64,000 nt of DNA from NCBI GenBank assembly GCA_002396645.1, contig DGYI01000067.1, forward strand, positions 13,165 through 77,164, given 5' to 3'. This DNA comes from Firmicutes bacterium UBA5010 (GTDB taxonomy: Bacteria > Bacillota > Clostridia > Tissierellales > Sedimentibacteraceae). This document shows, in pieces, positions 39,001 to 48,000 of the stretch; position 1 is the first letter of the stretch; each line of letters begins with the position of its first letter. The position numbers were made by a program.

Positions 39001-42000
39001 TAAATATTTTACACTAATTTAATAAGTATTAACATAGCATTTTCGGAAAATTTTTGTAGATTTTATAAGTATTTTTTACTAAATTTCATTCAAATTTATT
39101 TCAACATCACAAATATCCTGCATGGAGTTATCGTGTGTTATAATAATTATTATTTTATCTTTTTTGATATCATCCAGATAATTTATTAATTTTTCTTTGC
39201 TTTCTGCATCAAGAGCTGAACTTGGCTCATCGAATATCATTAGCTCGGGATTTTTTACAAATTGTCTTAATATCGATATCTTTTGCTTTTCTCCGCCGGA
39301 AATATTGCTTGATTTTTCATTTATTACTGTTTCTAAGCCCTTTTCTAATGAAGCTATATATTCATTTAGTCCCAGAATATTGATATATTTGGTTATAAGC
39401 TTTGTATCATAATTTTTGTCGAGTATTATATTATTTATCAGCGTATCGGGAATCAGTATAGGCTCTTGCTCTGTTACTCCTATGTTTTTTTCTCTTGCCT
39501 TATATATATTGATTTCTTTTATATCAATATCATTATAGCTTATTTTACCCTCATAGTCGTTAATATAAAGTCCGAGAATCAAGCTTATAAGTGTGCTTTT
39601 TCCTGCACCGTTATGACCTGTCAGACTGTACATTTTTCCTTTTTCTAATTCAAGATTATAATTTTCAAATATGCTTTTTTCACTATATGCAAATGTAAGA
39701 TTTTCTACTTTGATACTTTCTATATTTTCAATTTCATATTTTCCGTATTCCTGCTGCGGTATTGACAGGATTTCGACTATTCTTTTATATGATACAAAAT
39801 TATCCTGATATGTTTTTCCCAGATTAAAGAAATATCTTGATGAGTTCATCATCATAGAAAAGTAATTTGTCATAATTACATAGTATCCTATAGTCATGTG
39901 TCCGTTTATTATGGCAAAGCCCCCTATAAGAAAAATACTTAATTGCGCAACTAAGCCTATAATAGAATCAAAACTTGTATATAAATAGGCAAGTTTTTGT
40001 GATGAAACTATTCTCTTTATCATTCCGGTAAATGCCAAATCAAGTCTTTTTGTAAAAACTTCTTTAACTGAATGTATCTTTATAAATTTAATGTTAAAAA
40101 GCTGTTCGTTTAATTTAGAAAAAAAGCTTCCCTGTGCTTCTTTCAATTCAAACGATTTTTGAAATAAAGGCTTCTTAAATGCAGAATATATTATTATATA
40201 TAAAATCAAAAGTATAAACATTACTATGGCTATATTATGGTTTATCCTTATCAATAAAAATGCGGCAAAGATAAGTGTGATAGAATTTACTAAAATATTT
40301 ACAATTACTTCTATGCAAAACATTATTATTGAATTTGAGTCGTTGTTGATTCGTTGGTTTAAGTATGCCGTATCAATATTGGCAAAATGGGACATGGAAA
40401 CATCCTGAAGGTGATTTATAACATACTTATTCAGGGCATATCCGCTTTTTGTCTGCAATTTTATAAATATGTACGATGATAAGAATCCCGACAGCACATT
40501 AATTATACTGATAACGGCATATAAAATGCAATAATAAATTAAATCCTGACTGCTTTTTTTATATGTCAGATTATTAATTATTTCTCCCATTAATAAGGGA
40601 ATTGACATACCTATTACAGCGGTAATAATATTTAATAAAATATTAAGACTGAATATGCACTTATATTTAAAAATGAATTTTTTACAAAATTTAAATATTT
40701 TCATTATAAATCCTTTTATAAATTATTTTGTTATTTAATATTGTTCCATTTACTTTAATACTGCTAATGTTCCCAATATCAAGACAAAATATTATTATAC
40801 CTGTCATACCTTTTTCATCTATTATCTCCAATAATTTTTAATCACTATTCGGTTAATGCTTCTTTTAAATCAGGAAACAGCCATTTGCGTGTATATCGGT
40901 TATAAAGCGGGAAAGGCTTGCCATCCTCTTCACCCGGACCGGCATCCCACCAGACACAGGCAATGCCAAGTTTTTCTGCCTTTTTCCTGATATAGCGTGC
41001 CCAATCTGTGCGCTGCTGCTCATTTTTCTTATCTACTGCACTGAATTCAGTTATAATTACAGGGACACCTTTATTTACAAAAAATCGATTAAGGTTTTCA
41101 AATATCTTATCAATCTCTTCTGTATCCATAGAATTTTCATCATCAAACTCCGATGTACCTTGTATGTTCAGAGCAAAATCATATGGTGAATATAAATGTA
41201 CCGAAAGAATCAGCCTATTTCCCTCAGGCATGCAAAAATCCTTTAATGCCGCCTCATATACCTGTGCACAATAAGTGGGCAGAATAAGGTATCTATCACT
41301 GTTTTCTCTACCGCTTTCACGAATTGTCCGAACAAAAATGTCGTTTAATTCATTGATAATTTCACGTGCACGTTGAGTTCCTTCGCTCCATTCTTCTCTT
41401 TCTCCGATTAGGCGTGGTTCATTCATGCTTTCAAATAACAGTCTTTGATCATATTCTTTAAATTGTTCGGCTATTTGACTCCATAGACGCTGCATCCTTT
41501 CGCGAGCTTTTGGCAAATGCTCATCATCAGGAGTATACCAGCTGTCGTGATGTGCATTTAAAATCACATGCATATCTGCCTGCAATCCGTAGTCCACCAC
41601 CTGCTGTACACGTTCAAGCCAAGCCTTGTCTATGATATCATTCTCATCTATATGTTCATACCAAGTTACGGGTATACGCAAAACATCAAAGCCTGCCTGC
41701 TTTATATCCTCTATCATTTCCTTTGTAGTAACAGGATTTCCCCAGTAGGTCTCAAAATCAGAGGGATTATTTGTTTCAAAATGAAGATTGTGTGTATCTA
41801 ACGTATTTCCTAAATTAAGTCCGGGACCTAATTGTTTTACAAATCTCCTTGTTTCTCTGTCTTGCAGTTTTATAAAGCTCCATACCTCCACCTCTTGTAA
41901 ATTTTTCGATATAAGTATTCCTATTATAAATATAAAGCCAAAAGCTAAGATAAAATCATAAAAACGAAATCGGTGTTTATGTCGTTTCATTCGTCTATTT

Positions 42001-45000: not shown

Positions 45001-48000
45001 CCTGTATTTACAATCTGAAAATCAAAAAGTGCAAATAAAATAGGCGACAAAATAAAAATTAAGCGGTTAAAAAAAGACCACCAGTATAAAAAGCTGTTTA
45101 AATAGGTAATTCTTGCAGCAAGGGAAAGCTTTCGCGAAAAGATAGCACGTGTGTTTTGCAGGCTTTGCAGGATTCCCCTTGCCCATCTGATTCGCTGCTT
45201 GATCATCGCTGAAATGGTTGTAGTGGTAAGACCGGCTGCCTGAACTTCATCTGTCGCATACGTAATATAGCCTGCCTGCTGTAATCTTACACTTGTCTCG
45301 AAATCTTCCGTAATAGTTTTTAAAGGAAAGCCTCCTATGTCCTCCATTGCCTTCCGGTCAATTACTGTATTGCTTCCGGTATAGGCAACTGCATTTGAAG
45401 TATTTCTAAGAATGTTGATTTCTCTGGAAAAAAAATCCTGTTCATTGGGAATACTTCGTTCTGCAAAAAGGTTGAACTGGAATAAGTCCGGATTATAAAA
45501 GCTTTGTGGAGTCTGGACTAAGCCAAGCTTCCAGTCAGCATCTTTCTCATCCTCTCTGCGCAGCCTCCATGTACCATCATCTTTGATGAATTCTGATAGA
45601 AAAAAGTACGGAACAGTCTTCATCAAAAATGTATGCTGAGGAATCATGTCTGCATCAAAGGTTGCAATCAGCTCAGATGAGGTTTTAGACAAAGCATTGT
45701 TTAAATTGCCTGATTTAGCATCTTTATTGTCTGCAAGACCCAAATATCCTACTTCAAACTGCTTCGCAAGTTCTGCCACTTCAGGACGATTACCATCATC
45801 ACAAAGGTAAATATGTACCTTTTTTTTGTCCGGATAATCCATAAAGGTACAAGCATTCACAGTTTTGTACAACAGGTCTGCCGGCTCATTGTGGGTAGCA
45901 ATAAAAACATCCACATCGGGATAATATTCAGAAGGAATAATCGGACATTCTAAATGCCAATTTTTTTTCTTTATCTTTTGAACGAAAAGCTCAAAGGTTG
46001 TAAGCACAGTCACTGTTTCAGCTACAATAAGCAGGATTCCGAAAATCATATTTAATACACCCTGATTAAATGGCAATGTAAAAAGCATTCTCCATATCAG
46101 ATAAATAGACATCAGAATCATAGTAAGTATTAAAAAAGCATTTCTTCGCTTTTCTCTATTCATTGTGCTTTAAACCTCCTTATATATTATGTTTAGTCCC
46201 CTCTTTGGCAAAAACCCACTTTTGCTGTATTCGATAGCTTAATAGATACAATACAGTGTCAACAGCGATTTTCCCAATTTTTTCATTGATAGCAAAGAGT
46301 CGGTGAAGTGCATAAACTCCTGTTGAAGAAAATAAAATAATCATAGCGCACAAAATCAAATAGCGGATTAAGCTCTGTTTAGCTGTTTTTTTCTCACGAA
46401 ACACAAAGTTTCGATTCAGCAGATAATTTACTGCAATAGAAATAAGCCTCGCAACGAAGGTAGCCGTTAAAATCTTCAAATATTCCGATTTAAAAAATGT
46501 ACTGAGAAAATCTAAAAGAAACCATGCAATTCCAAGATCAACAGCTGCACTTACAATGGATGAAACAGAAAATCGTATAAAATCAGAAAACAGTATGCCA
46601 ATAATTCGGGCACTGTCACGAAATGGTTTGAAATGAGTTCCCTCATTAGAGTTCATATAAATTACTTTAATCGGAAGCATCTGAATGTTGATATCAGCTT
46701 TAACACAAGCAATGAGCATCTGTATTTCATATTCAAATCTATCTCCTTTTACAGCAAGCATAAATTCAAGCAGAGGCATCCCGAAGGCTCTAAGTCCTGT
46801 TTGTGTATCTGAAAGGCGTCTTCCGTATAATGCTGCAAACACAAATGAAGCAAACTTGTTGCCAATCAAGGACTTTGCCGGGATTCCGGGTGTAGTGAAA
46901 TCACGAATCCCCAAACATAAAGCATCAGGATTCTTTTTTGACAGTTTCAAAATCCGTAAAACATCTTCGGCTGCATGTTGTCCATCTGAGTCTGCCGTTA
47001 CTATACAGGCAAACTGATGATAATTTTCTTGTATATACTTAAATCCTGTCTTTAATGCACGACCCTTTCCATAATTCTCAAAGTGATGCAACACTATACA
47101 TCCATTCATATCCAGCTTTTGAAAAATGTCTTGATAATCCTCACCCGAACCATCATCTACAATAATAATATCCGTAAGACCATGTTCTTTTAACTCATTT
47201 ACATATGATAAAATCTTCTTGTCAGGCTCAAGGGATGGAATAAGAATAATGGCTTTTTCATTATTTAGATTCTTCATTTTATTCTCGCTTTATCTTCTGT
47301 TATTATTTCTTTATTTCCATTGAATAATATGATAACCATTTTATATTCTATTATTAGCCACGGGATGATTTATCTTGAATAGCAATTTTAAGATGATGAA
47401 ATAATAACATTGATTGCACATACGGTTGACTTTTTCCTAATCATGGTATATCATAGTTTGAGTTGTGATAAGTTAGTCTTTGGGAGGTTTTCATGAAAAA
47501 AAGCTTAATATTGTTTAAGGTTTATTTATTGGCAGGTACATTCACGTTCTCAGGCGGCATTGCTATGCTCCCTCTTATTGAGAGAGAATTATGTGATAAA
47601 TACAAATTAATTGATAAAGAAAGCTTATATGAATATGCGGCACTATCTCAAACTTTTCCCGGAGTTATAGCTCTTACAAATGCTTTTTTTGTAGGAAAAA
47701 AAATCAGCGGTGCAAGCGGAATGTTTTTTGCGGGAATGGCCGTAATTTTACCGGCATATGTGTTAATGACCATTGCGGCTCTGCTTTATAAGCTTATTCC
47801 TCATCAGGGACCTGTGCTAAGTGCAATGTCAGCTGTAAGAGCAGCTTCCGCATCATTTTTATTTGCTGCATCATATACAATTGCAAGATATAATCTTAAA
47901 TCTAAAATTAATATTGCTATTGCTTTTATTTGTTTTGTTCTTACGATATTTAATCTGATTGAAGTTCCTATATTGATAGTATTATCCGCTCTTATCGGAA

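Follow-up and report, generated by a model that had tools for sequence, protein, structure and literature searches.

A putative operon for a cyclic di-GMP-gated beta-glucan glycosylated after export in a Sedimentibacteraceae genome

Layout and proposed function of the operon

Within the 64,000-nt stretch of contig DGYI01000067.1 from Firmicutes bacterium UBA5010 (Sedimentibacteraceae) analysed here (hereafter the window, to whose positions all coordinates refer), a tightly packed four-gene operon was identified on the minus strand, running from 47277 to 40845, and its composition points, with moderate confidence, to a synthase-dependent beta-glucan that is gated by cyclic di-GMP (c-di-GMP) and glycosylated after export. 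All described open reading frames (ORFs) were confirmed at their coordinates, and those of the operon are, in the order of transcription:

46180..47277, minus strand: GT2-GtrA (Dpm1/DPMS-like) fusion, in which GT2 is glycosyltransferase family 2; 365 aa, Pfam PF00535 and PF04138
43857..46163, minus strand: BcsA-family processive GT2 synthase with a C-terminal PilZ domain; 768 aa, Pfam GT2 and PilZ
41995..43860, minus strand: predicted GT-C-fold glycosyltransferase with 14 transmembrane (TM) helices and an extracytoplasmic C-terminal alpha/beta domain; 621 aa, from predicted model and topology
40845..41990, minus strand: membrane-anchored endo-beta-glucanase of glycoside hydrolase family 5 (GH5), subfamily-4-like; 381 aa, Pfam Cellulase, ATG start probable

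The spacer from the GT2-GtrA gene to the synthase gene is 16 nt and the synthase and GT-C genes overlap by 4 nt (ATGA), so that the overlap and the short spacers together suggest co-translation. The initial annotation had described overlapping genes, which holds for the synthase and GT-C genes; an overlap of the GT-C and GH5 genes (35 nt) exists only with the TTG start at 42029 of the mechanical ORF, which gives a protein of 394 aa. Since the ATG at 41990 is preceded by GAGGAG and yields 381 aa, the length also called in orthologous loci, this start, 4 nt past the stop of the GT-C gene, is more likely.

A Bcs-type synthase of a CcsA sister subfamily

The second gene had been read as a BcsA-like processive GT2 with a QxxRW motif and, at its C terminus, a PilZ domain, and motifs, Pfam and BcsA matches agree with this. 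The catalytic motifs DDG, DAD, TED and QRIRW are in register with E. coli BcsA, the Pfam GT2 domains and PilZ (1.8e-8) were detected, and PDB matches were obtained to the BcsA proteins of E. coli (2.3e-78) and Rhodobacter (2.5e-62). Moreover, the gating loop FxVTxK is present as FKVTNK and the c-di-GMP-binding motifs of PilZ are intact (RQNER for RxxxR and DVSDQG for DxSxxG), and gating of the synthase by c-di-GMP via PilZ is predicted. The score lies under the NCBIfam equivalog cutoffs for CelA (TIGR03030, 387 vs 699 bits) and NF008558 (326 vs 992), and no BcsB-like gene was found in the locus. Reference synthases were taken from the supplementary alignments of Chang et al. 2023, with stray X characters stripped, and the identities to the window synthase were as follows:

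Clostridiales protein QOX64858: 55%
Streptococcus salivarius RGW05786.1: 47%
C. difficile CcsA WP_021391996: 40% over 688 aa
Lachnoclostridium phytofermentans homologue: 40%
RiGT2, proven mixed-linkage glucan synthase: 32%

Because the synthases that occur with the same two partners, GT2-GtrA and the GT-C protein (the trio), are 47-93% identical to the window synthase, those counted as trio-type orthologues 53-93%, and CcsA only 40%, the protein is best placed, by sequence, in a sister subfamily of CcsA rather than as its orthologue. The Sedimentibacter hydroxybenzoicus orthologue (locus L008; WP_179237502) is 81% identical and was placed in 'clade 3' with CcsA, outside the mixed-linkage Cgs clade 1 (Chang et al. 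2023, PMC10374906). A beta-glucan is thus a reasonable product.

The synthase runs ~150 aa past PilZ (residues ~625-768; window 43857-44300), a part in which no Pfam domain was found. The start of this tail ('RRLPRIHL...FNYRYFSV') aligns with the C. difficile and L. phytofermentans CcsA to ~residue 689, and the tail could be a second, degenerate PilZ-like barrel.

A fused polyprenyl-phosphate sugar synthase heads the operon

For the first gene, Pfam detected Glycos_transf_2 (5e-14) and GtrA_DPMS_TM (2.7e-14), both over cutoff, with the GtrA/DPMS domain PF04138 spanning residues 235-356, predicted to form four TM helices and fused to GT2 as in DPMS-type enzymes. The nearest NCBIfam families, all under their equivalog cutoffs, were AglJ (3.8e-25), PpgS (3e-14) and the haloarchaeal Dol-P-hexose transferase, families of enzymes that load sugar onto polyprenyl phosphate. 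The only PDB sequence match was a weak one to ArnC, in which the query DSDGQH (DxDxQ) aligns to ArnC DADLQN. The agreement of Pfam, NCBIfam and the ArnC DxDxQ alignment bears out the initial annotation of an operon headed by a GtrB-like polyprenyl-phosphate glycosyltransferase fused to a GtrA-like domain, and the protein is predicted to be a polyprenyl-phosphate sugar synthase of the DPMS/GtrB/ArnC kind.

A predicted GT-C-fold glycosyltransferase follows the synthase

Direct sequence searches with the 621-aa polytopic protein gave no Pfam, NCBIfam or PDB match, and a 41-sequence profile of its family searched against PDB sequences gave only noise, with no PDB chain found. The family is uniform in length and comprises 1,596 clusters (50% identity) at E<=1e-3 and 302 at E<=1e-30; UniRef names of close homologues include 'Glycosyltransferase RgtA/B/C/D-like domain-containing protein', and the cluster-member names of distant homologues read only 'Erysipelotrichaceae'. 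An AlphaFold model built from 20 close homologues was unusable (pLDDT 55), and one built from 41 diverse homologues reached a pLDDT of 91.6 and a pTM of 0.93. In structure comparison the best matches were ArnT, ALG12, AftA and Pmt, and Foldseek independently placed ArnT at the top of its list (E 6e-4, probability 1.00), with DPY19 and EmbC next. In addition, the family members P0363 and P0368 exceed the Pfam PMT_2 gathering score (29.8 and 28.8 vs 26.1 bits), P0363 and the window protein aligning along their entire length at 38% identity (E 2e-128). Because ArnT ranked first in Foldseek and two family members passed the PMT_2 gathering score, the protein is assigned, on its predicted model, to the GT-C-fold glycosyltransferases.

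Helix boundaries of the model together with the positive-inside rule gave 14 TM helices, the N and C termini both being placed outside and the K/R-rich loops at residues 80-90, 188-193, 239-245, 282-291, 379-383 and 447-469. Five polar residues (D116, H120, D222, K261 and R423) are invariant down to 22% identity and all are put on the outer face by the predicted topology, D116 within YDNFSHW, a motif that is invariant and sits in the first long outer loop; the alpha/beta domain at the C terminus (502-621), which is acidic, is likewise predicted outside. In the model, these outer-face residues and the outer domain have the layout of a working GT-C transferase. GT-C transferases of this layout draw sugar from a polyprenyl-phosphate carrier, and ArnT, ALG12, AftA and Pmt transfer single sugars from such donors.

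The trio is conserved across two phyla

A family-motif scan of species-representative genomes (one per species) revealed 532 loci encoding a relative of the GT-C protein, the best 80 of which were compared by tblastn. In every uncut locus (79/79) the gene immediately upstream of the GT-C gene encodes the synthase, the 80th locus being cut by a contig end. Of the 78 loci with enough upstream sequence, 70 have GT2-GtrA immediately upstream of the synthase. Calling GT2-GtrA an "added" gene, as was first done, is therefore misleading, as it is a conserved member of the trio. The earlier suggestion that the fusion supplies lipid-linked sugar with which the glucan is modified outside the cytoplasm gains support and is strengthened by the present results.

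The 80 loci come from genera such as Sedimentibacter, Paenibacillus, Cohnella, Lacrimispora, Hungatella, Faecalicatena and the actinobacterial Collinsella, and thus span Bacillota and an actinobacterial genus, with Collinsella proteins 39%, 53% and 42% identical to the three of the window; Collinsella, Lacrimispora and Hungatella are gut commensals. In gene tables of Aminipila, Paenibacillus solani, Brevibacillus and Sedimentibacter, the trio recurs among neighbours that are otherwise unrelated. A metagenomic contig is the closest relative, with 93-98% protein identity (88% for GT2-GtrA) and the same flanks. Farther away, a relative at 37% GT-C identity has the order GGDEF / GT2-GtrA / synthase / GT-C, and one at 31%, in which no GT2-GtrA is adjacent, has EAL / GGDEF / synthase / GT-C.

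In the 1,092-aa S. salivarius protein RGW05786.1 (taken from supplement file 5 of PMC10374906), a single chain holds both GT2-GtrA (residues 4-355) and the synthase (353-1030), the two parts being 37% and 47% identical to those of the window. The fusion may be genuine, of the Rosetta-stone kind, or an artefact of gene calling; barring such a mis-call, it provides an independent argument that GT2-GtrA and the synthase act together. A homologue search started from locus L087 returned gut Clostridia and no Streptococcus.

The synthase gene (44001-46000) has 38.7% GC, the highest after the first 2 kb of the window, whose average is near 33%, and the trio proteins are 57-77% identical between the Sedimentibacter-like host and Paenibacillus/Aminipila-type relatives. 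The GC-rich synthase gene and these identities across lineages are compatible with a horizontal spread of the cassette.

The GH5 endoglucanase is a lineage-specific accessory

The last gene had been annotated as a membrane-anchored GH5 endoglucanase, and the Pfam Cellulase domain (7e-64), a signal anchor at the N terminus and the two catalytic glutamates (in NEP190 and TEF314) were indeed present. The closest PDB structure by sequence was 6q1i (2.4e-89), with 6wqp and 6pz7 also among the best; further matches included the beta-1,3-1,4-glucanase 4x0v (1e-79), the 'GH5-4 broad specificity endoglucanase' 6xsu (4e-74), 4im4 (CelE) and the xyloglucan-specific 4w85. Apart from 6xsu, which is so named, we take these structures to belong to GH5_4, a group that includes enzymes acting on substituted and mixed-linkage beta-glucans. 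The E-values against GH5_4-type structures range from 2.4e-89 to 4e-63, whereas that against CcsZ (6uje) is only 1.8e-26, and in sequence the GH5 thus resembles subfamily 4, not subfamily 25, to which CcsZ belongs. Among the 80 loci, a GH5 gene follows the trio only in the Sedimentibacter-like loci, one Faecalicatena and one Ruminococcus genome; because of this restriction it is a lineage-specific accessory, and the core consists of the GT2-GtrA / synthase / GT-C trio. Where GH5 is missing, other glycoside hydrolase genes were seen a few kb downstream of the trio, namely GH16 with CBM_56 in Paenibacillus solani (L004/L014) and GH26 in Aminipila butyrica (L003).

Sources of c-di-GMP

No GGDEF gene was found anywhere in the 64-kb window. 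One further gene of possible relevance was confirmed:

55961..57070, plus strand: HD-GYP domain protein, possible c-di-GMP phosphodiesterase; Pfam HD_5 1.8e-34, motifs HDLGK and HHEKYDGTGYP

The domain call made for this protein in the initial annotation is genuine, but its role as an input to PilZ is no more than plausible, because the gene is on the opposite strand at a distance of ~9 kb, with unrelated genes between (for lysine biosynthesis, a Band_7 protein and regulators). Several relatives have GGDEF or EAL genes beside the cluster, with GGDEF at its head in L006, L007 and L087. A motif scan of the flanks of the 80 loci detected GGDEF, EAL or HD-GYP genes in a few loci only; the scan was strict and missed a degenerate GGDEF-EAL gene that Pfam detects. 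Adjacent c-di-GMP enzymes are not a general feature of trio loci.

Proposed mechanism

On the proposed reading, the synthase, whose homology and motifs were described above, would polymerise UDP-glucose and translocate the chain once PilZ binds c-di-GMP, with product and linkage presumed. At the inner membrane face, GT2-GtrA would, as its family suggests, load a sugar from a nucleotide donor onto polyprenyl phosphate, the GtrA/DPMS-type TM domain anchoring this step and possibly helping to re-orient the lipid-sugar by flipping. At the outer face, the GT-C protein, translationally coupled to the synthase and with the modelled fold and topology for such a step, would then move the lipid-carried sugar onto the emerging glucan as side branches, an acceptor suggested by the strict gene linkage. 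Finally, the anchored GH5, where present, may trim or release the polymer, as would suit its family.

Several observations weigh against this scheme. The window GT-C protein itself is under every Pfam threshold, its glucan acceptor is taken from gene linkage alone, and no biochemical data on any trio member were found in the literature. The synthase is 32-40% identical to both the proposed cellulose synthase CcsA and the proven mixed-linkage glucan synthase RiGT2, and because of this and the sub-cutoff CelA score, sequence does not decide the linkage of the backbone. Furthermore, GH5 is absent from most of the 80 related loci, and, as the chief weakness of the scheme, the synthase and GT-C genes occur without an adjacent GT2-GtrA in 8/78 loci, L088 being a further case; where GT2-GtrA is missing nearby, the donor would have to be supplied by another source, unless the GT-C protein acts in a way that needs none. 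Two paralogous clusters ~590 kb apart on contig NZ_JBMBWP010000002.1 of Lacrimispora sp. AGF001, L058 with GT2-GtrA and L046 without it, would fit a shared lipid-sugar donor.

Alternative explanations

Such loci are also what keeps alive the alternative that survives best, itself unlikely, in which the synthase requires the GT-C-fold protein mainly as a partner for structure or translocation, in the manner of BcsB, and GT2-GtrA serves another pathway: about one in ten loci has the pair without an adjacent GT2-GtrA. The pairing of synthase with GT-C protein (79/79) is stricter than that with GT2-GtrA (70/78), L088 and several loci of Lacrimispora and Hungatella have just the pair, and the 4-nt gene overlap suggests stoichiometric co-production. 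However, the outer-face Asp, His, Lys and Arg stay invariant to 22% identity, as would be expected where a GT-C active site is functional, the S. salivarius record has GT2-GtrA and the synthase in fused form, and the related synthase RiGT2 is reported to function in yeast without any partner (PMC10374906).

Slightly less probable again is that GT2-GtrA and the GT-C protein glycosylate another acceptor, such as teichoic acid, another wall polymer or a protein, and are merely co-regulated with the glucan synthase. The near-invariant, translationally coupled adjacency in two phyla, together with the fusion, is hard to explain by co-regulation alone, and no teichoic-acid genes were found in the flanks examined. 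In favour of another acceptor, the known Gram-positive three-component systems CsbB/GtcA/YfhO and GacI/J/L decorate teichoic acids and rhamnans, and PMT_2, the nearest sequence family of the GT-C protein, includes protein O-mannosyltransferases.

A lipid-primed route, in which GT2-GtrA makes a polyprenyl-phosphate-glucose primer or anchor and the GT-C protein then transfers or ligates the whole completed chain to an acceptor on the surface, is very improbable: direct evidence for it was not found, the best structural matches (ArnT, ALG12, AftA and Pmt) transfer single sugars, and BcsA-type synthases are not known to require a lipid primer (review PMC8892547).

The standard Clostridial CcsA-CcsB-CcsZ system making (acetyl)cellulose, with the polytopic protein as a CcsB-like translocation partner and GT2-GtrA appended, agrees with the clade-3 synthase (40% identity to C. 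difficile CcsA) and the membrane-anchored GH5 that comes after, but it is contradicted already at the level of architecture and is very improbable, given the 14-TM GT-C fold without similarity to the CcsB region, a GH5 nearer to GH5_4 by >60 orders of E-value, no MBOAT/DHHW gene found among the scanned ORFs, and GT2-GtrA standing with the synthase in 70/78 loci.

Comparison with known systems

In the ccsZABHI operon, CcsB consists of two TM helices bracketing a CBM11-like beta-jelly-roll ectodomain, CcsZ belongs to GH5_25, and CcsH (MBOAT) and CcsI (DHHW) form an acetylation pair (Scott et al. 2020, PMC7710045). The window shares with it a BcsA-homologous GT2 and PilZ synthase and a membrane-tethered GH5, and neither has BcsB or BcsC; it differs in having the predicted GT-C protein in place of CcsB, a subfamily-4-like GH5, a GT2-GtrA gene and another gene order. 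BLASTP of the GT-C protein against the 1,093-aa C. difficile record including the CcsB ectodomain region gave nothing under E 1.6, and no MBOAT/DHHW match was found in 29 ORFs (flanking and other larger ones; ORFs <180 aa in the first 36 kb and some larger ones were unscanned). Along with the synthase at only 40% identity to CcsA, these features do not sustain the "ccsA-ccsB-ccsZ pattern" that had first been assigned to the operon. The C. difficile record itself (WP_021391996.1; PMC10374906 supplement file 5) continues past the synthase with a TM segment and a long ectodomain, has a further TM helix at the C terminus, and looks like a CcsA-CcsB fusion rather than two proteins.

In comparison with BcsA-BcsB, the window synthase has all catalytic, gating and PilZ motifs, yet it scores under the equivalog cutoffs and the locus has no BcsB, BcsC, BcsZ (GH8), BcsG or BcsQ. 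The Cgs enzyme RiGT2 of Romboutsia ilealis (Chang et al. 2023, PMC10374906) is likewise a Gram-positive GT2 and PilZ synthase without BcsB, with 32% identity, and is reported not to be clustered with a bcsB-type partner gene; it differs in belonging to clade 1, whereas the window synthase belongs to clade 3. The L. acidophilus gts operon was considered as a relative and rejected, as its architecture differs. The locus is therefore not Ccs, not canonical Bcs and, by clade, not mixed-linkage Cgs.

Three-component systems (GtrA/GtrB/Gtr, CsbB-GtcA-YfhO, GacI/J/L and ArnC-ArnT), which we presume to be comparable, have in common with the operon a GT2 polyprenyl-phosphate sugar synthase, a GtrA module and a GT-C transferase whose active site faces outward. 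In the window, however, GtrA is fused to GT2, the unit stands under a PilZ-gated synthase, and the presumed acceptor is the product of a BcsA-type synthase, not O-antigen, teichoic acid, rhamnan or lipid A.

A streptococcal c-di-GMP module composed of diguanylate cyclase, Dpm1-GtrA, CelA and a multi-TM protein has been noted without a function, and the available parts of that source describe the membrane protein just as a multi-TM inner-membrane protein and the product as 'cellulose-like' (Römling et al. 2023, PMC10333796). Three of its four components occur in the window in the same order, GT2-GtrA and the synthase being homologous to RGW05786.1. The window differs in having no diguanylate cyclase gene in 64 kb and an extra GH5, and the membrane proteins are matched by description only. 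Römling et al. 2023 cite Liu et al. 2020 (ACS Infect Dis) for the module. No study was found in the literature that recognised the membrane protein as GT-C, suggested that the polymer is glycosylated or established what the product is. The locus is a combination of a Bcs-type synthase with a predicted three-component lipid-linked glycosylation system, in a cassette that had already been noticed and is uncharacterised.

Significance

The modifications of bacterial cellulose named in the literature consulted are phosphoethanolamine and acetyl groups (PMC7710045), and no literature report of sugar side chains on a synthase-made glucan was found. Tentatively, at somewhat less than an even chance, the operon may represent the first recognised Bcs-type, c-di-GMP-gated polysaccharide that is given side branches after export by a GT-C transferase fed with polyprenyl-phosphate sugar, that is, a 'hemicellulose-like' beta-glucan encoded by a mobile three-gene cassette. 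If so, it would constitute a new chemical class of biofilm matrix polymer, give a function to a conserved 600-aa family of ~1,600 clusters (50% identity) now annotated as hypothetical proteins, explain the 'cellulose-like' c-di-GMP module of streptococci, and offer a compact three-gene cassette for engineering decorated glucans. A tempting mis-annotation is also corrected, as the partner is not CcsB and the locus is not a Ccs system.

Genomic surroundings

The operon neighbours include chromate transporters, ABC exporters and a Band_7 protein. Upstream, two chromate-transporter genes face the operon across the following region:

47278..47492, no strand: divergent intergenic region of 215 nt, presumed promoter region, 5' of the operon

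Upstream of the operon, a promoter and terminator scan gave nothing convincing, being no better than shuffles, and Rfam, c-di-GMP riboswitches included, gave no family at E<=1. The sole Rfam match in the window was a tRNA gene (60571-60658).

Downstream, an ABC exporter gene (39079-40704) lies 140 nt from the operon; it was rejected as a member of the system, being conserved in the closest relatives only. It belongs to a row of three ABC half-transporter (permease-ATPase) genes at 34717-40704, immediately downstream of the operon. In the close relative (L001/L002), an additional 527-aa gene with a faint Peptidase_MA_2 match lies among the half-transporter genes, whereas the window lacks it and has a 636-nt gap at 38444-39078 instead.

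Elsewhere, GC falls to 24.6-28.9% at positions 6000-10000, compared with ~33% in the rest of the window, and this low-GC stretch holds a 588-aa ORF (7833-9599, minus strand) for which no Pfam match was found. Directly after the HD-GYP gene on the plus strand lies a gene with LysM and GH18 domains (57202-58332, chitinase/lysozyme-like), followed by a dCache-HAMP-MCP chemoreceptor gene (58449-60386).

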